Virus record (IMG/VR): IMGVR_UViG_3300045988_159385
Coordinates: 1 to 47,144 of that record
Direction: 5' to 3' (one strand)
Source: a virus
Length of the DNA stretch: 47,144 bases
Below the pieces are notes generated by a model. It ran no database searches. It had not been told where the DNA came from and saw only the letters and a program-made list of their open reading frames with translations. Positions 1-47,144 of the stretch are shown here, in pieces. The first letter of the stretch is position 1; each line of letters opens with the position of its first letter. The position numbers and the translations under genes are program-made.

Positions 1-577
1 CCCAAGTATAAAGTTTCATTAAATCTTCTTTAAATTCTTCAATTGCTTTTTCAGCTATTTCTTGCGATGTAAAATATATATTATTAGATTGATATGCAAA
101 ACTGACATCAATTGTTAATTCATTATATTTATGGTCAAATGCAATAAAATATTTTTTAGAATCATTATGCCAATTAATAGCTTTTGCATTATGTTCCCAA
201 GCAAATCTGTCCAACTTTCTCATTACATTCTCTTTAAAAGCAATATATTCAGTATAATTTTTATTATTAAAATAATTAGCAATATTCAATTGTTCATTAT
301 CTGTATCATCATTCATATTATAAATTTTAACGCACTTACCGTTCACTATACAATAATAATCCGCTTCGCATCCAACCTGTTTATACGGGTTATTAAATGC
401 TGCTTCTTTAACTTCTTCAAATTCCATTTCTAATAAATCAGCTATTGGAGTACGTAAATCTTTTAGATAAGTATTAGTTTCAACATCTAATAAATCACCA
501 TATTTTACTTTAAATATGGTATTATCACACTTATATCTCTTTCCATTTGTTTGTAAATCTAATTCTGTTATTTTCAT
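1..577 (-). CDS. Conserved hypothetical protein, paralog A (about 195 aa). Its 3' end runs off the left edge and finishes at 47102-47144 if the molecule is circular.
   Basis: Minus-strand ORF with ATG at 575-577 and SD GGAGAA at 583-589. Translation MKITELDLQTNGKRYKCDN...AEKAIEEFKEDLMKLYTW is paralogous to ORF 6505..7077. The last about 95 nt are nearly identical to 6517-6610. Confidence 0.6.
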   Translation of the reverse strand, partial: MKITELDLQTNGKRYKCDNTIFKVKYGDLLDVETNTYLKDLRTPIADLLEMEFEEVKEAAFNNPYKQVGCEADYYCIVNGKCVKIYNMNDDTDNEQLNIANYFNNKNYTEYIAFKENVMRKLDRFAWEHNAKAINWHNDSKKYFIAFDHKYNELTIDVSFAYQSNNIYFTSQEIAEKAIEEFKEDLMKLYTW

Positions 578-3713: not shown

Positions 3714-3886
3714 TTTAATGTAAAAACTTTGAACCTTCTGCAAACATTTTTAAACTTAATAAACCGTTATTTTTGTATTTATTTATAGCCATTTCTAAAT
3801 ATTTATTAGGTATTTTGTGGTGTTAGTATAAAGTAGTGGACACAGTAAATCGAACTAAGTAAAATAATATTTAGTTAAGAAAGGAT

Positions 3887-4168
3887 GTGTCCATTATGGG
3901 AAAGGGCAGAAGATACGATCAAGAATATAAAGATATGATAGTAGAATTATTTAAGTCAGGAATGAGCTTAGCAGAGCTAAGTAGCGAATATGGCATTGCA
4001 AAATCAACAATTAACGGCTGGATTAAAGATGTAAAAGAAATTAAAGTAGATGAAAATGAAGTTATGACATTAAAGGAAGTTAAGGCTTTAAAAAAAGAAA
4101 TGGCAAGAATTAAAGAGGAAAATGAAATATTAAAAAAAGCTATGGCCATATTTGCAACAAGAAATTAG
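3887..4168 (+). CDS. IS3-family transposase OrfA (HTH, leucine-zipper-like C-terminus)
   Basis: 93 aa, MSIMGKGRRYDQEYKDMIVELFKSGMSLAELSSEYGIAKSTINGWIK. Confidence 0.8.
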   Translation: MSIMGKGRRYDQEYKDMIVELFKSGMSLAELSSEYGIAKSTINGWIKDVKEIKVDENEVMTLKEVKALKKEMARIKEENEILKKAMAIFATRN

Positions 4169-4221
4169 ATGAATTAATAGAATTTATAAATAGCAATAAA
4201 AACAAACATGATATTAAGACT

Positions 4222-5043
4222 ATGTGTACCGTTCTAGGCGTAGCCAGAAGCACATATTATAAATCTTTTGATAAAACTAAATCTGCAAGAGAACTAGAAA
4301 ATGAGGAATTAAAATCAGCTATTAAAAGGATATATAAAGAGAATAAAGGCATATATGGTGCTCCTAGGATTCATCATATACTTGGTATAGAAGGATTCAA
4401 TGTATCATTGAAGCGAGTTCAAAGACGAATGACTGAACTTGGCCTTTGTGCAGTAACTGTAAAAAAATACAAACCTCATTCAAGTAAAAAGGTAGCAGAA
4501 GATTTAGAAAACGTTTTGAAAAGAGATTTTACTACTACTTCTATTAACGAAAAATGGGTAGGAGATATTACATATATTTATACTATCAAAGATGGTTGGT
4601 GCTATTTAGCTTCAGTTCTAGACTTATATTCTAAAAAAATAATTGGCTATGCTTTCGATCAGAGAATGACTAATGATTTAGTTGTTAAAGCCTTAAAAAA
4701 TGCTTATTACAGCCAATCTCCCGATAAGAATAAGCAATTAATATTTCATAGCGATTTAGGCTCTCAATACACTAGCAATGATTTAAGGGAGCTATGCAAA
4801 GAGTTTAATATTATACAATCGTTTAGTAAAAAAGGTTGTCCATATGATAATGCTTGTATAGAATCTTTTCATTCATTAATAAAAAAGGAAGAAATATATA
4901 GAAATACATACCGTACCTTCGAAGAAGCTAATATGGCTATTTTTAAATATATTGAAGGTTGGTATAACAGAAAAAGGCTACACTCTTCTATTAATTACAT
5001 GACTCCAGATCAATGTGAATTATTAGCTAGAAGTGCAGCATAA
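4222..5043 (+). CDS. IS3-family transposase OrfB (DDE integrase core), probably made as an OrfAB fusion by a -1 frameshift
   Basis: Frame 1 is open from 4126 through the slippery site. Contains the HSDLGSQYTS motif and is a 273-aa DDE domain. Confidence 0.8.
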   Translation: MCTVLGVARSTYYKSFDKTKSARELENEELKSAIKRIYKENKGIYGAPRIHHILGIEGFNVSLKRVQRRMTELGLCAVTVKKYKPHSSKKVAEDLENVLKRDFTTTSINEKWVGDITYIYTIKDGWCYLASVLDLYSKKIIGYAFDQRMTNDLVVKALKNAYYSQSPDKNKQLIFHSDLGSQYTSNDLRELCKEFNIIQSFSKKGCPYDNACIESFHSLIKKEEIYRNTYRTFEEANMAIFKYIEGWYNRKRLHSSINYMTPDQCELLARSAA

Positions 5044-5204
5044 AAAAGTTTGACTTTTTGTGTCCAAAATATTGACATAAGACCATTGTTAATTAACTCA
5101 GCAGCTTCATCTACACTCAATTCAGTTTCATTGCTTAATGTTAATATAAATCCGTGTTTGTCTATAAACTTCATTTAAAAACCTCCTATCAAATAAATAA
5201 TAAA

Positions 5205-5385: not shown

Positions 5386-5694
5386 CTATAACCTCCATTT
5401 ATTTCGCAATATATTCAGCGCATTCTTGAAATAATTCTTTGATACTGATTGCTCTTCATCTTTTTGATCTAAATATTCATTCAGAGTTATTGGCACAATT
5501 AATTTTTCATCTATTTTAAATTTAGTTGCTATTATTCTTCTTCCTTCTCTAACAAATTTTTTATATTTATTTTTTGGAATGTTATAAGTTGTATAATGTA
5601 CTTTAACGCAACTATAAACCTCTGTTGGGTCGCCATATTTATCTTGTCCACACCCTGCTGATTTTTCTATTCTATAACATAGTCTAATTTTCAT
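5386..5694 (-). CDS. Hypothetical protein (102 aa)
   Basis: ORF in the array. Confidence 0.4.
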   Translation of the reverse strand: MKIRLCYRIEKSAGCGQDKYGDPTEVYSCVKVHYTTYNIPKNKYKKFVREGRRIIATKFKIDEKLIVPITLNEYLDQKDEEQSVSKNYFKNALNILRNKWRL

Positions 5695-6176: not shown

Positions 6177-6515
6177 TTAAATCCACTCTACCTCATCTAT
6201 TTCAATATTCTTATTACAATATGGACATTCTATTACTGTTCCACCCCAATCTCCTGGACACTCGCTTGGCATTAAACACTCAAAACCACTATATTCCATT
6301 TCTATGTCATAAAAACAGTGTGGACATTCAATTTTAACCTCAACTGGGCTTTGAATGATTCTTACATCTGATGGAAGTAATCTTTCTCCATAGTTATCGC
6401 ACTTTCTACAATGCCTTTCTCTACATGAATAATTTTCAATATTCTTGTAGTAAGGACACTCCTTACAAATATCTATATCATGTACCATTACTCTTTCTCC
6501 TCTGCTAAACATCAA
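6177..6515 (-). CDS. Cys-rich multi-CxxC protein (112 aa)
   Basis: At least four CxxC pairs. A degenerate copy of its C-terminus lies on the plus strand at 18844-18897. Confidence 0.5.
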   Translation of the reverse strand: MMFSRGERVMVHDIDICKECPYYKNIENYSCRERHCRKCDNYGERLLPSDVRIIQSPVEVKIECPHCFYDIEMEYSGFECLMPSECPGDWGGTVIECPYCNKNIEIDEVEWI

Positions 6516-7077
6516 ACTCCCAAGTATAAAGTTTCATTAAATCTTCTTTAAATTCTTCAATTGCTTTTTCAGCGACTTCTCTTGATGTAAAATATACATT
6601 GTTAGATTGATATGAACAACTCCAGACAATTATTAATTCATTATGCTTATTTGAAAATTTAATATAATATTTTTCAGAACAACTATCATTCCAATTTATA
6701 ACTGTTTCATTATTCTCCCAAGCGAATCTGTCCATTCTTCTCATTAAAGTTTCTTTAAAGGCAATATATTCAGCATATTCTTTATTGTTGAAATAATTCG
6801 CTGCTGAAAATAGTTCATTATCAAATTCAAAATTGTTATCTGTATCTGAATGAGTCCTGAATCCAAATATGGAATAATACCTTTCTCTATCATTTACTCT
6901 TGTGTAAGGGTTTTTCGCTTCTTTAATTTCCTCAAATTCCATTTCTAATAGTTCAGCCATACTAAAATTTCTTGTTGCAGCTATTAAATTACCTTCTTCT
7001 ACTTCAAAGACTTCATTCATATCTTTGCAAAAATATTTTTTACCATCTTCTTTAAAATCTATATCTATTATTTTCAT
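6505..7077 (-). CDS. Conserved hypothetical protein, paralog B (190 aa)
   Basis: Paralog of the gene at 1-577; the 3'-terminal about 95 nt are nearly identical. Confidence 0.55.
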   Translation of the reverse strand: MKIIDIDFKEDGKKYFCKDMNEVFEVEEGNLIAATRNFSMAELLEMEFEEIKEAKNPYTRVNDRERYYSIFGFRTHSDTDNNFEFDNELFSAANYFNNKEYAEYIAFKETLMRRMDRFAWENNETVINWNDSCSEKYYIKFSNKHNELIIVWSCSYQSNNVYFTSREVAEKAIEEFKEDLMKLYTWEFDV

Positions 7078-10362: not shown

Positions 10363-10416
10363 CTTTTTGACGCTTTTTGTCTATTTATTGCTTATCAAAT
10401 GTCTTGACAATAGACT
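10344..10416. promoter_or_regulatory. Operator cluster of the genetic switch (three TTGTCTA-containing dyads)
   Basis: GTCTACTGTCAAGAC (10346-10360), TTGTCTATTTATTGC (10376-10390) and GTCTTGACAATAGAC (10400-10414). The first and last are inverted copies, and each overlaps a -35 TTGACA. Confidence 0.5.
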
Positions 10417-10437
10417 TAGTAGGATATAAAATTACAT
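10409..10437 (+). promoter_or_regulatory. Promoter for the CI-like repressor gene
   Basis: TTGACA at 10409-10414, 15-17 nt spacer, then TATAAA or TAAAAT. Confidence 0.45.
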
Positions 10438-10451
10438 ACGAGGTGATTTCC

Positions 10452-10832
10452 TTGAACAAAAGATTGAAAGAGTTAAGAAAAACACTTGGTCTAACTCAGC
10501 AACAATTTGCAAATGATATAGGGCTAGGAAAGTCCAGTATAGGCAATATCGAAAATGGGATCATTAACTTGACTGATAGGAATATTAGTGTTATATGTTC
10601 CAAATACAACGTTAACGAGCGATGGCTTAGGACTGGAGAAGGAGAAAAGTTCGCAGAACTTAACGTAGATGAAGAAATAACATTTATGTTAGGTGCTTTA
10701 CTTGCAGAAAATTGTTCGCAAAAAAAAGAGTTTATTAAGCTAATGTTATCTTTAGATAACGAAGATGATTGGAAGATTATTTCCGATTTGGCGGAAGGAC
10801 TCAAAAGAAAGAATGAAAAAAGCAGAGATTAA
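10452..10832 (+). CDS. CI-like XRE-family HTH repressor (about 126 aa from TTG start)
   Basis: HTH LGLTQQQFANDIGLGKSSIGNIENG. GAGGTG SD 6 nt before TTG at 10452. No S24 peptidase domain is visible. Confidence 0.65.
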   Translation: MNKRLKELRKTLGLTQQQFANDIGLGKSSIGNIENGIINLTDRNISVICSKYNVNERWLRTGEGEKFAELNVDEEITFMLGALLAENCSQKKEFIKLMLSLDNEDDWKIISDLAEGLKRKNEKSRD

Positions 10833-10847
10833 TCTCTGCTTTTTTTG
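10821..10847 (+). terminator. Intrinsic terminator
   Basis: Perfect 20-nt palindrome AGCAGAGATTAATCTCTGCT followed by TTTTTTT. Confidence 0.7.
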
Positions 10848-11834: not shown

Positions 11835-12632
11835 TTACATTATTCCTAAATACTCTTCTAATTCTCTATTTTTAGAGTTAATTTGAATATATGTATTATC
11901 GTTTAAATCAAATTCAGTCCACTTATCATATACTATCTTTTCTACATAAGCAACTACACCTGCTAACTCTATTTTAGTTCTTAAGTAATCTATTTGCCCA
12001 AATACCTTCGCTTGAATTATAGAATTATTTATTCTTTCTTTAACCATTAATACTTTAGCTATATCTTTCATTTCTTTCTTAGAAGCATATCTTCTACCTT
12101 TAATTCCACGATATAATTTCTTGATTTCATCAACAAGAGAAAATGTGCAATTTTCTCCATTACTATTAATATAATTTATATTTAATCTTGAAGTTTCTAG
12201 TGAAGGAGCATGGCACTCTAAAACATTAGTATTTTCAATGCTTTCAGAACTATTTTCATCTTGTACTTCTTCTTGTACTTCTTCTTGTACACTTAAATCA
12301 TTTTCGTTTTCTTTAGGTTCATCTTTTTTATTTAAAACAACATATATTTCACCATCTTTTTTTTCTAATAAGCTAAGATCTATTAATTCATTAACTAAGT
12401 TATAAAAATATTTTTGTGACATTCTTTTACCTTTCCATGTATACATCTTATAAAGTCTGTTTATGCTGTAAACTAACTTACAATTTGGGCTATATTTCAT
12501 AACGTATCTTAATACAGATTGAATCTTTTTAGTTTTCCCCCCATTATATTGCTGCATATCTAACACTGCCAGTTGATACTCTGTAAATGGTATATAATTT
12601 TCTTTTATCTTTAAATTCTTGATGTTAAACAT
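11835..12632 (-). CDS. Hypothetical protein (about 265 aa) with acidic QEEVQEEVQ repeat; candidate replication initiator or DNA-binding protein
   Basis: ATG at 12630-12632 with AAGGAGAG SD. A 12-nt tandem repeat at 12262-12297 encodes the acidic repeat. Function is not recognised. Confidence 0.4.
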   Translation of the reverse strand: MFNIKNLKIKENYIPFTEYQLAVLDMQQYNGGKTKKIQSVLRYVMKYSPNCKLVYSINRLYKMYTWKGKRMSQKYFYNLVNELIDLSLLEKKDGEIYVVLNKKDEPKENENDLSVQEEVQEEVQDENSSESIENTNVLECHAPSLETSRLNINYINSNGENCTFSLVDEIKKLYRGIKGRRYASKKEMKDIAKVLMVKERINNSIIQAKVFGQIDYLRTKIELAGVVAYVEKIVYDKWTEFDLNDNTYIQINSKNRELEEYLGIM

Positions 12633-12983
12633 TTTATACTCTCCTTTGGTAAAACAAAAAGAAGCACTTAAGTACAAACTTAAATACGTCTTTATTAAAA
12701 AAGCATAAAATGCATTAATTTCTAATATATTCAACGTTGACAATTCTAAGTTTATTTTATATACTTTAATTAGTTCTTTTGAACTAACAAAATTGTATAT
12801 ATGTTAAGCTATTTGGCGATAGTTTAACTTATTTCGGAATCGTCTTTTAAGTATTCGTGGTACTTAATTCATCAATGAAGGTTTGGCGACCAGCATTGAA
12901 GATGGTTCTTTTTGTTATTCATTTTTATCTATGTATAGATAATACTACATATTTTTTGAAAATAAAAGAGGTTTTTATAAAAA

Positions 12984-13021
12984 AAGATAGCAATTGAACA
13001 AAATTTTGCTATCTTTTTTAT
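12984..13021 (-). terminator. Bidirectional intrinsic terminator
   Basis: AAGATAGCAA-loop-TTGCTATCTT hairpin flanked by A and T runs. Confidence 0.6.
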
Positions 13022-13030
13022 TATTATATT

Positions 13031-13678
13031 TTATTTTGTTATCGCTGGATGCTTGTATACATTAGTTGCTAATTTTTCAAAATTATCATTTGTAATTCCG
13101 TTAAAATTAATTTTTTCTATAGTAGATCTATCGTATTCGAAAGATAAAACCTTATAATTTTCTGTATTCCCATAAACGTCAGTTAAATCTGCGGTAAACC
13201 AAAATTGATATGTGTTAAATTCGTACCCAGCATCTAAAGAATGTTGTATTATATCTTTTGCTTTTAAAAAAGCACTTGTTACACTCATAGAATTGCTAAA
13301 CGTACTAGGGAATTTCATCTTAACAACTAAATCCTCACCAGTGTTTACCTCTAAAACAGAATCTTTTCCCACCTTATTAACTATTTCTGTAACTGTTAAA
13401 GGCTTAGTTTCTTCTTCAATTTTCTCTTGTGTATTATTTTCTGTAGCTATATTGTTTTCTGTTGCCGTTTCTTGTTCTTTATTATTTTCAGTGTTGTTTT
13501 GGCTTACTGGTTGATTTAATACACTAGCAACAGTAATAATAGCAAATACAGAAGCTATTGCAATTCTTACTGGCTTGTTAAAGCATTTTCTTTTAAACAT
13601 TAAGTATAGCCCAAAAGGGAAAAATATTATCAATGCTAATACTACAAATAAATTTGTTTCATAAAATTGTTTGTTCAT
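13031..13678 (-). CDS. Membrane-anchored protein (215 aa) with N-terminal TM helices and a large extracytoplasmic domain; candidate exclusion or surface protein
   Basis: Hydrophobic segments LFVVLALIIFFPFGLYLMF and IAIASVFAIITVASVL, with a TENN repeat linker. Confidence 0.45.
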   Translation of the reverse strand: MNKQFYETNLFVVLALIIFFPFGLYLMFKRKCFNKPVRIAIASVFAIITVASVLNQPVSQNNTENNKEQETATENNIATENNTQEKIEEETKPLTVTEIVNKVGKDSVLEVNTGEDLVVKMKFPSTFSNSMSVTSAFLKAKDIIQHSLDAGYEFNTYQFWFTADLTDVYGNTENYKVLSFEYDRSTIEKINFNGITNDNFEKLATNVYKHPAITK

Positions 13679-13711
13679 ATGTACTCCTTTAATAAATATA
13701 AGTTTATCTTT

Positions 13712-13820
13712 AAAAAATAAATGTTTACCTTTATATTTACATAATTTGTAAAAAGAGTTATGCTTAAATATATAGGTAATTGCTATTATAATATATGTTT
13801 GCCAAAAAATAAATGTTTAC
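13712..13820. repeat. Pair of direct repeats AAAAAATAAATGTTTAC
   Basis: Copies at 13712-13728 and 13804-13820, in the divergent region between the membrane-protein gene and the small RHH gene. Confidence 0.45.
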
Positions 13821-13847
13821 TTAAAAAATAGAAAAGGAGCATTGATT

Positions 13848-14000
13848 ATGGGGAGAAGAAAAAAGGATAATTCATTGTCTGAAACAATTGCATTTAAAAT
13901 AACTAAGGATCAAAAAGAAGTGCTGGATAAGAACAAATGGATAAAAGAAGAATTAAAGAAGCAAGTAAGAGAATTTTTAGATTTGTTTATAATGAAATAA
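13848..14000 (+). CDS. Small putative ribbon-helix-helix DNA-binding protein (50 aa)
   Basis: MGRRKKDNSLSETIAFKITKDQKEVLDK... with AAGGAG SD; sits upstream of parC and parM. Confidence 0.35.
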   Translation: MGRRKKDNSLSETIAFKITKDQKEVLDKNKWIKEELKKQVREFLDLFIMK

Positions 14001-14059
14001 CCTAAAAAACACCTTAAAATAAAAAAAATAGGTGAAATTTTAAAAAAGCACTTTACAAC

Positions 14060-14092
14060 TAGGTATAATTTAGGTATAATTTAGGTGTAATG
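14060..14092 (+). repeat. parC-like centromere repeats with embedded promoter
   Basis: Three tandem 11-mers, TAGGTATAATT x2 then TAGGTGTAATG, directly upstream of parM. Confidence 0.5.
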
Positions 14093-14144
14093 TTAGTAAA
14101 CGATATTTGTTTTACAAAAAATAGTTATAGGGAGATATTAAATT

Positions 14145-15122
14145 ATGAAAAAATACGTTTTAAGTGCTGATATTGGTAAGTACGAAACAGAAATTACAGG
14201 TAGAGATTTAGAAGGAACAAAAGAAGATATTAAGACAGTTGCTTTAAGAACTAAGATGTATGATTTAAGCAATGGATATATCGAAGTTGAAGGAGATAGC
14301 TATGTAGTTGAATTTGACGGAAAAGAGTTTATTGTTGGAGAACAAGGTCAATCAAAAAGTGACGATACTACAAAAACTCAATTCTTACACCAGTTAGCTT
14401 GTTACACTGCAATTACTAAATTTTTAGAAGCAGGAAGTAAAGACAATAAAATATTCATGACTTTAGCTTGTCCTTTAAGTGTATTAAGTATACAGGAAGC
14501 AAAAGAAGAATATAAAAACTTCATAAAAGGTGATGGGCCTATTAAAATGAAGGTTGATGGTAAAGAATATGAGTTTACTATTGAGGACATAACTATAAAG
14601 GCTGAAGGTGCTGGAATAATATACTTAGAACCAAACTTATTTAAAGATAAATCTGTTGCTATAGTAGACCTTGGTGGTTTAAATATGGGATTCAGTTTAT
14701 ATATTAATAAAGTATGTAAAAAAGAATATAGATTTATAGAAGAGTGTGGAACTGATAGATTACTTGATTTAGTTAGAGAACAACTTTCTATATATAAGAA
14801 AGGAAACCTTGTAGATAAAGATATTTCAGAAAAAGCTTTAAATGAAGGTGGCTTAAAGAAATCAGGTAAACTTGATCTTGACAGTGTAGACTTCATAGAA
14901 ACTGCAAAAGAAAATTACTTTAAGGAAGTTATGGGTTATATAAAGGCGCATAAATTTGATGTAGAAACACTTGATGCTATTGTATTCGTTGGAGGTACTT
15001 CTCAACATATTAAAACTAATATAGTGACTTCATTAGAACACGCTTATGTTCCAAGTAATTCTCAATACTGTACCGTTGAAGGCAATTATAAAGTTGCTAT
15101 TAAAAAATATGGAAACATTTAA
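14145..15122 (+). CDS. parM: Actin-like segregation ATPase (ParM/Alp family)
   Basis: N-terminal phosphate-1 motif LSADIGKYETE and VDLGGLNMGF motif. 325 aa, followed by a small RHH gene. Confidence 0.65.
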   Translation: MKKYVLSADIGKYETEITGRDLEGTKEDIKTVALRTKMYDLSNGYIEVEGDSYVVEFDGKEFIVGEQGQSKSDDTTKTQFLHQLACYTAITKFLEAGSKDNKIFMTLACPLSVLSIQEAKEEYKNFIKGDGPIKMKVDGKEYEFTIEDITIKAEGAGIIYLEPNLFKDKSVAIVDLGGLNMGFSLYINKVCKKEYRFIEECGTDRLLDLVREQLSIYKKGNLVDKDISEKALNEGGLKKSGKLDLDSVDFIETAKENYFKEVMGYIKAHKFDVETLDAIVFVGGTSQHIKTNIVTSLEHAYVPSNSQYCTVEGNYKVAIKKYGNI

Positions 15123-15136
15123 GGAAAGGTGATTAA

Positions 15137-15508
15137 ATGCCAAGCATTGATAAAGTTGGTGGAGGAATAACAATAACTTTTGCCCCTAAAAATGATGATG
15201 TTAGGGAGATATTAGTAGAGTTAAAGAAAAGTAAAAAGGTTAAATTAACCGATTATATTTGTGAAGCTATAAGATTTTATGAAGCTAATAAAGATAAAAT
15301 GAATAATGATAAAGGTGATTTAGCTGAAATAATAAAAGAAGAAGTTTCAAAGCAAGTAAAATCTGAAATTGAAAAAATAGAAGTTTCAAAACAAATAAAA
15401 GATGAAATTGAAAAAATATTAGAAGAAAAGAAATTAACTTTAATTGAGAATGTATCTGTATCATTGGAAGATGATTTGGAAGATGTGGATATAACTGAAG
15501 ATGGTTAA
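15137..15508 (+). CDS. parR: ParR-like ribbon-helix-helix centromere-binding adaptor
   Basis: N-terminus ITITFAPKNDDVREILVELKK...LTDYICEAIRFY has a beta-alpha-alpha pattern, followed by an acidic coiled tail. Confidence 0.5.
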   Translation: MPSIDKVGGGITITFAPKNDDVREILVELKKSKKVKLTDYICEAIRFYEANKDKMNNDKGDLAEIIKEEVSKQVKSEIEKIEVSKQIKDEIEKILEEKKLTLIENVSVSLEDDLEDVDITEDG

Positions 15509-15524
15509 TGCCAAGGAGGAATTT

Positions 15525-16241
15525 ATGGAATCAGGAATTTACAAAATAGTTTGCATCCCAAATCAAATGGTTTATATAGGGCAATCTATAGATGTATCGA
15601 ATCGTTGGAAGCAACATTTAAATGATTTAAGAAGCAATAAACATTGCAATAAAGGATTACAAGAAGACTTTTTAAAATATGGAGAGATAAATTTTGAATT
15701 TTCAATAGTAGCTACTTGCGAAGCTAGTGTATTAGATTTATTAGAATTACATTATATTGATAAGTATAAAAAAAATAATCAATCTTATAATATAAAAACA
15801 AGCGAGAGTGGTAGACATAAAGAAAGAGTGCAATTAACTCCAGAGGAATATAAGAAAATAGTTAAGTTTAAAGAATCTGATACAATAGACGATGAAACTA
15901 TAAAAACATTGTTGGCAATGGCAAAAATGTTTTATTTAAATGGATTTGCCAGAAAAGAGTGTATTGCATTTGACTATAATTCCAACTCAATTAAAAAAGT
16001 TGTTTTCGCAGGGACACCTTGCGATGATAATTTGATGGCAATAAGAAAATGTATTTCTTTAGCTTTACTTTATATAATGTATTATGTAAATGAGTATATT
16101 TCAGAAAAGTATTCATATATGAATGAAATAGTAAAAACAAAGGTTTTATATAAAAACCTTCCATCTGAATACGGGAAATTAACGTTAAATTGTAAAGTTA
16201 TAAAAACTGGTGAACAATTTAAAAAAACTTTATACTTTTAA
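15525..16241 (+). CDS. GIY-YIG homing-type endonuclease
   Basis: SGIYKIVCIPNQMVYIGQS...R...H...N motif. AAGGAGG SD before ATG at 15525. Confidence 0.7.
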   Translation: MESGIYKIVCIPNQMVYIGQSIDVSNRWKQHLNDLRSNKHCNKGLQEDFLKYGEINFEFSIVATCEASVLDLLELHYIDKYKKNNQSYNIKTSESGRHKERVQLTPEEYKKIVKFKESDTIDDETIKTLLAMAKMFYLNGFARKECIAFDYNSNSIKKVVFAGTPCDDNLMAIRKCISLALLYIMYYVNEYISEKYSYMNEIVKTKVLYKNLPSEYGKLTLNCKVIKTGEQFKKTLYF

Positions 16242-18429: not shown

Positions 18430-18804
18430 ATGAGAAAATCACAAGTAGTTAGAATGAATAAAATCAATGAATTAATCGAAGTTATAGCTAATACAGATAG
18501 AAGGTTTTTTTATCACAAAAGTAAAGAGAGTATTGATAAATTCATAGAAGGTAAAACAACAGTATTTTTCTATGATGTTTATTTAGATAAAAAAATAAGC
18601 TTAACATATAAAAATAGACATAATTTTAGTCATGGTGGCACTCTTTGGGGATTAGTTAATGATTTTAAAGAGTGGATAATAACTGGAAAACCTTCAAATG
18701 GTTCAAATGGATATGGCGGAGTTTATTGTCCTCATTGGGGATATAGCGAAGAAGGTCAATTAAAAGTTATAGAAAAAGCAAAAGAAATTGGATTTATAAA
18801 ATAG
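18430..18804 (+). CDS. Hypothetical protein (124 aa)
   Basis: GGAGGGG SD; motif copy at 18388-18413. Confidence 0.45.
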   Translation: MRKSQVVRMNKINELIEVIANTDRRFFYHKSKESIDKFIEGKTTVFFYDVYLDKKISLTYKNRHNFSHGGTLWGLVNDFKEWIITGKPSNGSNGYGGVYCPHWGYSEEGQLKVIEKAKEIGFIK

Positions 18805-18828: not shown

Positions 18829-18897
18829 TGGAGGAAGAGTAATAGATTGCCCGAACTGCGAAAAAGAAATTGAAATTGATGAGGTGGAGTGGATTTA
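18828..18897 (+). pseudogene. Remnant of a Cys-rich mini-gene (3' end only)
   Basis: A motif copy (18804-18828) and GGAGG precede it, but the start codon is lost. IDCPNCEKEIEIDEVEWI* matches the C-terminus IECPYCNKNIEIDEVEWI* of ORF 6177..6515. Confidence 0.5.
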
Positions 18898-18984
18898 ATG
18901 GTATCAGTATTAGAAACTAAAAAGAAAGCTAAGAAGCACTAAAGTAAAAAGAAATTTGAGATATAAATAATAATGTTTATATAA

Positions 18985-44853: not shown

Positions 44854-45360
44854 TTAAATTCTTCCTTGAAAATATTTCTCTATCTCTTTCTTTTGTATTA
44901 TGTTGTTAAAGATATTCTTATTCGCTACAACCCAAATCTTTTGATTAAGAGTTATATCTACCAACTCAGATGAAGAAAATTCATTACATACATCTATCAT
45001 TTGATTAATAAGCTTTCTATCATTTTGACAGATTGAACCCCAGTTAAAACTTTTAATAACAGCATTCCATACCCCTTTACTAATATCTGTGTACTCTGTT
45101 ATTGGTGGTATGTTATTACCTCCATACTTTCTGTATTCTTTATACACTTCAGGTATTACTGGCCCAAAATCCCATGCTTCTATTTCTTCAGTAAAACATT
45201 CCACACCTTTTGTTGTTATAAATAATGCTTGTACAAAATATAATATCTTTTGTAATTTCAAATTAGATACCCAATAATTATTTTTATTGCAATAATTAAT
45301 TACATATCTTGATACATCTAGTACGTTGTACACCCGCTCTTTATTACTCTTCTTCATCAA
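44854..45360 (-). CDS. Panacea (DUF4065/SocA-like) domain protein; candidate antitoxin
   Basis: LKLQKILYFVQALFITTKG...FTEEIEAWDFGPVIPEVYKEY matches the Panacea signature as I recall it. It overlaps the upstream ORF by 17 nt. Confidence 0.55.
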   Translation of the reverse strand: MMKKSNKERVYNVLDVSRYVINYCNKNNYWVSNLKLQKILYFVQALFITTKGVECFTEEIEAWDFGPVIPEVYKEYRKYGGNNIPPITEYTDISKGVWNAVIKSFNWGSICQNDRKLINQMIDVCNEFSSSELVDITLNQKIWVVANKNIFNNIIQKKEIEKYFQGRI

Positions 45361-47101: not shown

Positions 47102-47144
47102 ATTAAAAATTAAACTCCCAAGTATAAAGTTTCATTAAATCTTC
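47102..47144 (-). CDS. 3' end of the gene that starts at 577 (continuation across the circular junction)
   Basis: ...EDLMKLYTWEFNF* with stop at 47102-47104. Positions 47117-47144 are identical to 1-28. Confidence 0.55.

Follow-up and report, generated by a model that had tools for sequence, protein, structure and literature searches.

The prototype of type II (actin-type) plasmid segregation is the ParMRC system of the Escherichia coli plasmid R1, in which centromere, motor gene and adaptor gene follow one another in this order. The R1 adaptor, ParR, is a small protein with a C-terminal motor-binding region. Here we analysed a related region within a 47,144-nt stretch of viral DNA (IMG/VR record IMGVR_UViG_3300045988_159385, positions 1 to 47,144; hereafter the window). 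The region contains a parC-like putative centromere, the gene of a 325-aa motor of the Alp12 family (alp12) and the gene of a 123-aa ParR-like protein, and it is preceded by the gene of a 50-aa protein, which we call s50. An earlier reading of the same DNA (the original prediction) had already pointed to a partition cassette at this place. With good confidence we regard the region as a type II segregation cassette of the Alp12 family on an integrase-less temperate siphovirus, which most likely persists as a low-copy circular plasmid prophage.

The repeats bound by ParR proteins are direct ones located upstream of parM; in R1, repeats of 11 bp flank the promoter (PMC9426499). Alp12 of the Clostridium tetani plasmid pE88 forms ATP-dependent filaments with the architecture of a four-stranded open tubule (PMC5193048). 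In the searchable literature the Alp12 family is known for this unusual filament structure only, and we found no description of its adaptor or centromere there; the original Alp12 paper lies outside that literature. For ParMRC family B of the C. perfringens plasmid pJIR4165, binding of ParR_B to 8-bp GTATAATC repeats with a spacing of 3 bp has been reported (PMC9426499). Both phage-plasmids in clostridia (PMC10210947, PMC8473940) and ParM-plus-adaptor cassettes on plasmid prophages of Firmicutes (PMC8026635) are established. The AlpC/AlpA/alpS system of the Corynebacterium glutamicum prophage CGP3 likewise combines a phage-encoded actin-like protein, a DNA-binding adaptor and specific DNA sites (PMC5539076, PMC4446434). 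A cassette on a phage that lacks an integrase cleanly illustrates an arrangement known before and is conceptually nothing new.

The cassette of the window has much in common with that of pE88. The motors are homologous over their full length, a homologous gene of ~113 aa lies directly downstream of the motor gene, the same iterons of the TAGGTATAA type are found upstream, and a homologous 51-aa gene with GTTTAC boxes is located nearby. Unlike the window, pE88 is no phage but a toxin plasmid of 74 kb. Its 51-aa gene has a divergent orientation, and its iterons are mostly inverted. With R1 the cassette has the gene order in common, but it has fewer iterons, some of them inverted, and its 123-aa protein has no detectable sequence similarity to the R1 adaptor. 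We further compared phage-plasmids of clostridia and Bacillus, namely C. perfringens pZ1322WCP0013-3 and "phage-like" plasmids, C. botulinum pRSJ22_2, CWou-2020a, and the Bacillus phages IEBH and vB_BtS_B83. They also join a siphovirus-type genome with a ParM-like motor, a small adaptor and a putative centromere, and they are circular episomes. In contrast to them, the window has no DNA-level similarity to these elements, the Alp12 identity being 50-71%, and Xer-type or resolvase genes, which are present in many of them, are absent from it. CGP3 differs from the window phage in that it integrates into the chromosome and uses its system to transport and replicate viral DNA. Finally, the ParR_B repeats have the same 11-bp period and the same GTATAAT core as the repeat unit of the window, TAGGTATAATT. 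Family B is, however, a different ParM family, found on large conjugative plasmids.

The Alp12-type motor and its putative adaptor

The three open reading frames (ORFs) of the region, encoding proteins of 50, 325 and 123 aa, were found where the original prediction had placed them, all on the plus strand (Table 1). The 325-aa protein aligned over residues 3-322 with residues 7-326 of ALP12 (PDB 4apw_A) at an E-value of 4.7e-96, the next best PDB matches being the bacterial actin AlfA at ~1e-6. It scored 63 bits with the Pfam family ALP_N (PF17989; cut-off 26.3) and matched PHROG 691, a "partition protein", over its full length (1.5e-42). The NCBIfam ParM model PRK13917 gave 22 bits versus a cut-off of 417. 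Neither sugar kinases nor Hsp70 proteins appeared among the Pfam, NCBIfam or PDB matches, which rules out both identities and bears out the actin-fold ParM/Alp ATPase that had been proposed. As judged by these alignments, the protein is a full-length homologue of Alp12, the ParM of pE88.

The two motifs noted before, DIGKYETE and VDLGGLNMGF, are present at residues 9-16 and 174-183. In an alignment of six members the residues D9, G11 and K12 (phosphate 1, DxGxxK), D175, G177 and G178 (phosphate 2, DxGG) as well as G283, G284 and T285 (adenosine, GGT) were invariant. Of the 47 plasmid records in which a tblastn search with Alp12 revealed relatives, 46 were non-mobilizable and 34 came from Clostridium. 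Those relatives that were closer, at 36-71% identity, were located on Clostridium plasmids of 36-113 kb, with identities of 71% for a 36.3-kb C. perfringens plasmid, 58% for C. baratii, 53% for C. botulinum and 49% for C. tetani pE88. A single annotated phage, CWou-2020a, was among the relatives (50%).

The gene of the 123-aa protein follows alp12 after a gap of 14 nt. For comparison we used 24 related loci, given below by L numbers, of which 5 came from annotated records, 16 from IMG/VR contigs and 3 from GTDB genomes. In all of them a homologue of this gene was found directly downstream of alp12. Within the family the N-terminal ~50 residues are strongly conserved (MPS..GGG.T.TF..KN.DV...DYICEAIRFYE.NKDK), a helical linker is variable, and an acidic motif is conserved at the C-terminus. 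The tail of the window protein reads SLEDDLEDVDITEDG; it keeps LEDDLDD.D.DED, the form in the family being LE(D/E)(D/N)L(D/E)D.D.(D/E)ED. The acidic tail that the original prediction had noted is thus real and conserved throughout the family. An AlphaFold2 (AF2) model places strands at residues 3-7 and 10-14 and helices at 20-32, 37-51 and 60-112, followed by a disordered tail.

A ribbon-helix-helix (RHH) fold had been assigned to both small proteins. The predicted order of a strand or extended segment and two helices agrees with such an assignment, but all sequence, profile and fold searches were negative. For the 123-aa protein, Pfam searches with each of 17 ParR-like members, PDB profile searches and NCBIfam gave no RHH family and no meaningful match, and Foldseek with the AF2 model gave no significant link to RHH proteins or solved ParRs. 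Its RHH fold is unconfirmed, with the modelled strand-helix-helix order being compatible with it. Synteny, size, architecture and the co-variation with the upstream repeats (see below) suggest that the 123-aa protein is likely the equivalent of ParR.

The parR-like gene contains a 39-nt tandem duplication (15340-15418, 2.0 copies, 90% matches), which generates a 13-aa repeat, EVSKQ(V/I)K(S/D)EIEKI, in the linker helix. Due to this duplication the protein is longer than its relatives (123 vs ~108 aa). Relatives of ~108-113 aa lack the repeat, so that the linker is of variable length.

The iteron array upstream of alp12

Tandem Repeats Finder detected an array of period 11 at 14060-14096 (3.3 copies, 92% matches), which consists of the units TAGGTATAATT, TAGGTATAATT and TAGGTGTAATG (14060-14092). 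A fourth direct copy, TAGGTGAAATT, is located at 14029-14039, and two inverted ACCT motifs (14000-14003 and 14011-14014) lie 11 nt apart within 14000-14019. With 5 motifs, the interval 14000-14100 is the densest TAGGT/ACCTA cluster of the whole 47 kb. In 300 first-order Markov simulations of the window a density of 5 motifs per 100 nt was reached in a single one, and three TAGGT motifs phased at 11 nt occurred in none. The three-iteron array is therefore not a product of chance. The repeats that had been proposed as parC are thus real iterons, but the parC-like region is larger than the three tandem units.

The best match to a sigma-70-type promoter in 13600-15700 was TTTACA-17-TATAAT, with 11 of 12 positions agreeing. 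Its -10 hexamer lies within the second 11-mer, as the original prediction had anticipated with its -10-like element. A terminator-like site was not found in the same interval.

The same iterons and layout were present upstream of alp12 in 15 of the 24 loci (L002-L010, L012, L014-L016, L021 and L022, including pE88). In the conserved layout a -35 hexamer (TTTACA or TTGACA) is followed at once by three tandem TAGGTATAATT units, and extra copies are found upstream in both orientations. The density of the motif upstream of alp12 was 12-27 per kb in these loci, versus 1-3 per kb elsewhere in each locus. In pE88 four inverted copies and one direct copy beside the promoter were counted. More divergent Alp12/ParR clades carry other repeats at the same position (the CWou-2020a group with GTAC-type repeats, and L020, L023, L024, L037, L040 and L041). 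The type of repeat followed the type of adaptor: TAGGT-type iterons occur with the ParR clades marked by MPS..GGG and MPGG.KQ and GTAC-type repeats with the clade marked by MARPNT, a correlation at the level of clades only. Such clade-level switching is the pattern expected of an adaptor and a centromere that co-evolve. With the position of the adaptor gene, the acidic tail and the promoter-embedded iterons all conserved family-wide, the plasmid type II segregation architecture that had been proposed is well founded.

From this arrangement a working scheme can be drawn. The ParR-like protein would bind the 11-bp iterons of parC cooperatively. Since the -10 hexamer itself belongs to an iteron, binding may also repress transcription of alp12-parR, similar to R1 parC. 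The acidic C-terminal tails of DNA-bound ParR could then capture the ends of ATP-dependent Alp12 filaments, and a filament growing between two ParR/parC complexes would push sister prophage copies apart before the cell divides.

For the Alp12 family this provides a likely adaptor, the acidic-tailed protein of ~110 aa, and a likely centromere of 11-bp iterons that double as the -10 box. As both are also present on the tetanus-toxin plasmid pE88, Alp12-based segregation becomes directly testable. Elements of C. perfringens, C. baratii, C. botulinum and C. tetani have the iteron in common, which predicts that these phage-plasmids and toxin plasmids are incompatible with one another through their partition systems. 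For the ParMRC families of C. perfringens such incompatibility has been demonstrated (PMC9426499). Further additions to the family are a conserved but facultative module of a small protein with GTTTAC boxes and a recurrent GIY-YIG gene behind parR, both described below.

Replicon state of the phage and alternative readings

The first 28 nt of the window (1-28) are identical to the last 28 nt (47117-47144), such that the sequence closes circularly at ~47,116 bp. Its G+C content is 29.7%. The genes for structure, packaging and lysis form a complete set (TerL, portal, major head protein, tape measure, tail proteins and endolysin). A primase-helicase, ERF and SSB are encoded as well and, with the partition cassette, provide functions for plasmid maintenance; DUF1351 and an ERCC4 nuclease are also present. 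The window is thus the genome of a siphovirus, a tailed phage of Clostridium type. It also encodes helix-turn-helix (HTH) proteins of the cI/Cro/RstR type, one with an RstR-family match, which point to temperate regulation. The 190-aa ORF at 6505-7077 has a paralogue in the gene that spans the 1/47,144 junction, the two being 83% identical (1-277 vs 6519-6798).

The absence of an integrase, on which the original prediction had built, was reproduced: none of the window ORFs scanned encodes a tyrosine or serine recombinase, and the unscanned ORFs of the structural module are not integrase candidates. The sole rve ("integrase core") domain of the window belongs to an IS3 transposase (3887-5043). 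We also considered an integrase that was wrecked by the IS3 element or concealed in the ORF-poor segment 1-6500, and rejected it since only small phage-type ORFs were found there. The IS3-family insertion sequence itself (3818-5085, plus strand) consists of an HTH_Tnp_1 ORF and the rve ORF. It is ~92% identical to copies in the C. botulinum phage CWou-2020b and in plasmids of C. botulinum and C. butyricum. When the cassette and both halves of the window were compared with phages and plasmids by megablast, nothing besides this element matched. No other connection at the DNA level to isolates that have been sequenced was seen, and IS3 hints at the host range.

An identical ParR was found on 17 contigs; six of these were 20-50 kb long (44.9-47.2 kb among those listed) and none was longer. 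Among isolates, the nearest cassette is located on the circular 36.3-kb C. perfringens replicon pZ1322WCP0013-3, which is a complete siphovirus genome. The cassette-bearing relatives pRSJ22_2 and CWou-2020a are circular phage-like extrachromosomal replicons as well. As the window has no gene for a tyrosine or serine recombinase, closes circularly and has circular phage-plasmids as its nearest isolate relatives, a low-copy circular plasmid prophage is well supported as the most likely state of the phage in its host. The low-copy plasmid lysogen of the original prediction thus agrees with the relatives and with the missing recombinase, but as a lifestyle it is inferred only, and for the episomal state in lysogens we argue by analogy to these relatives. 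A plasmid-prophage lifestyle would in this way be indicated for a recurrent Clostridium-type phage known from metagenomes only.

Several points weigh against a plasmid prophage maintained by an Alp12-ParR cassette. No dedicated plasmid Rep and no multimer resolvase were identified in the window. Metagenomic contigs of phage size are equally expected from packaged virion DNA, so that their size is no proof of a plasmid prophage. Neither sequence nor profile nor fold comparisons link the ParR-like family to an RHH family or to a solved ParR, and the AF2 confidence for the 123-aa protein is low (mean predicted local distance difference test score, pLDDT, of 60.5, with values of 44-56 in the N-terminal domain). 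Moreover, a partition cassette on a phage does not by itself guarantee or prove a plasmid stage (PMC8026635).

This last caution also favours the main rival explanation, in which the actin-like system serves the lytic cycle and moves or positions replicating phage DNA for replication and packaging. A precedent is AlpAC of CGP3, a phage-borne actin with a DNA-binding adaptor that is needed for efficient viral DNA replication (PMC4446434, PMC5539076). The position of the cassette amid early and regulatory genes, adjoining the HTH genes of the lysis-lysogeny switch, would suit such a role too. CGP3, however, is an integrated prophage, whereas the phage described here has no integrase. In addition, pE88, a plasmid that is not a phage, is maintained by the same cassette family, which in complete genomes is also found on circular phage-plasmid replicons. 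We therefore regard lytic DNA transport as an improbable main function, although it and prophage inheritance are not mutually exclusive.

A second alternative to prophage segregation by Alp12 and the 123-aa adaptor concerns the 50-aa protein s50. This protein, instead of the 123-aa protein or together with it, could be the centromere-binding adaptor, as in a three-protein ParMRC variant. Homologues of s50 adjoin Alp genes in the window group, L012, pE88, the CWou-2020a group, L037, L040 and L041; the 51-aa ORFs that precede alp12 in pE88 and in phage CWou-2020a are 51% and 43% identical to s50, respectively. The end of the gene coincides with the start of parC at 14000. The AF2 model (pLDDT 77.7; extended at 1-19, helices at 20-28 and 30-48) has an extended-helix-helix order that would suit a DNA binder. 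The distribution of s50, on the other hand, argues against a core role in partition. The gene is missing from 17 of the 24 Alp12 loci, among them the closest ones (78% identity), which nevertheless retain the TAGGT iterons. Sibling phages (L025, L027 and L029) with a 100% identical ParR and unchanged iterons have an s50 that is just 62-64% identical. Other members of the family precede genes for DNA polymerase III alpha or amine oxidase, and in a further case the protein forms a fusion with a T5orf172 nuclease domain. The conserved boxes of s50 are, moreover, GTTTAC and not TAGGT: in 11 of 16 distinct contexts the 220 nt that precede the s50 homologue contain 2-4 copies of GTTTAC/GTAAAC. An adaptor role of s50 thus appears very improbable to us. 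The idea that the upstream RHH gene makes the locus a variant of the parC-parM-parR layout has to be given up as well, given that s50 is facultative, has its own boxes, is absent from most Alp12 loci and also occurs beside unrelated genes.

We regard s50 as a genuine gene of a narrow family, of which an exhaustive profile search revealed 35 clusters among 1.84 billion representatives, nearly all of 50-57 aa. Searched member by member, the family had no Pfam match, and it had no PDB, NCBIfam or fold match either, with no RHH family or solved ParR among the hits. Its RHH fold is unconfirmed, in agreement as it may be with the predicted order of segments. We rejected the possibility that s50 is a truncated paralogue of the N-terminal domain of ParR, for which hhalign gave a probability of 0.6%. 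From the sequence comparisons, s50 most likely functions separately, as a small autoregulated DNA-binding protein whose targets are the GTTTAC boxes rather than the centromere.

The order s50-parC-alp-parR recurs in divergent lineages, in which the gene is co-oriented with the cassette (window group, L012, L037, L040 and L041). In pE88 and the CWou-2020a group s50 is divergently oriented. Distant members of the family are found directly upstream of ALP_N genes. It is conceivable, though rather unlikely, that s50 and its boxes constitute an undescribed third component of Alp12-type cassettes. As a second small DNA-binding protein, s50 might make the expression of the par operon or the assembly of the segrosome depend on what the element is doing, such as persisting as a prophage, growing lytically or firing its replication origin. 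In the CWou-2020a group box arrays flank the divergent small gene. On its far side at least 6 GTAAACA/TGTTTAC boxes lie within ~200 nt (L001 ~5420-5617, L013 ~2390-2586). This array resembles a set of iterons and may serve as an origin of replication or as a second array for binding.

We give hardly any credence to a third alternative, a virulent or pseudolysogenic phage with the cassette as an inactive remnant from a plasmid. In its favour, the phage has no known isolate or host and was met only in metagenomic contigs as long as a virion genome, and DNA-level matches to sequenced phages and plasmids are lacking apart from IS3. Against it, the three ORFs are intact, as are the promoter and the iterons, the catalytic motifs do not vary, Alp12 (97%) and ParR (100%) are conserved in sibling phages from different samples, and the repressor-type HTH genes, including the RstR-family match, point to temperate regulation.

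Neighbouring genes and further features

Table 1. Features of the segregation cassette and its surroundings in the window.
Feature	Position	Strand	Evidence
Two AAAAAATAAATGTTTAC copies (13712-13728, 13804-13820) around a 15-nt inverted repeat; putative s50 operator/promoter region	13712-13828	+	exact 17-mers
s50, small basic protein of 50 aa; putative DNA-binding regulator, facultative neighbour of Alp cassettes	13848-14000	+	homologues, AF2
parC-like centromere/operator: 2 inverted ACCT motifs, 1 direct TAGGTGAAATT, 3 tandem 11-bp iterons	14000-14092	+	Tandem Repeats Finder, motif census, simulations, conservation
Putative par promoter, TTTACA-17 nt-TATAAT, -10 formed by the second iteron	14052-14080	+	best sigma-70-type match, conservation
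alp12/parM, 325-aa actin-fold cytomotive ATPase of the Alp12 family	14145-15122	+	PDB 4apw_A, Pfam ALP_N, PHROG 691
parR-like adaptor gene, 123 aa: N-terminal putative DNA-binding domain, long helix, acidic tail	15137-15508	+	synteny, conservation, AF2
GIY-YIG homing-endonuclease gene, tight against the parR stop codon	15516-16241	+	Pfam GIY-YIG (1e-11), TIGR01453, PHROG homing endonuclease

The product of the gene behind parR scored 77.7 bits with TIGR01453 (group I intron endonuclease; cut-off 56). It is probably a selfish homing-endonuclease passenger in the par operon. GIY-YIG genes are also found behind parR in two other, divergent Alp loci, L007 (3322-4041) and L041 (2343-3239), and upstream of alp12 in a third, L009 (1924-2652). 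Their presence in several Alp loci suggests repeated homing into a conserved operon.

The sibling phages L025, L027 and L029 reveal a sharp mosaic boundary just upstream of parC (window positions 11835-14000). On its far side they lack the gene of a 215-aa membrane protein (13031-13678), and their version of a 302-aa protein (11835-12743, minus strand) is only 48-60% identical. This hypervariable protein is encoded between the HTH regulator genes and the par region and has a winged-helix-like N-terminus and an acidic middle part. It had no Pfam, PHROG or NCBIfam match and is a candidate for a replication initiator or an anti-repressor.

A perfect 30-nt palindrome (10816-10845) is located at the 3' end of the cI-like HTH gene at 10377-10832, where it could act as a bidirectional terminator or as an operator. 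The protein encoded at 44854-45360 on the minus strand, beside the ERCC4-domain nuclease and the primase-helicase, carries a SocA/Panacea antitoxin domain (PF13274, 2.1e-16). It may have a toxin-antitoxin or addiction function, which would also fit plasmid maintenance. An inverted repeat of ~68 nt with 82% identity connects the region of a 112-aa zinc-ribbon-like ORF (6177-6245) with positions 18830-18898 downstream of the ORF at 18430-18804.

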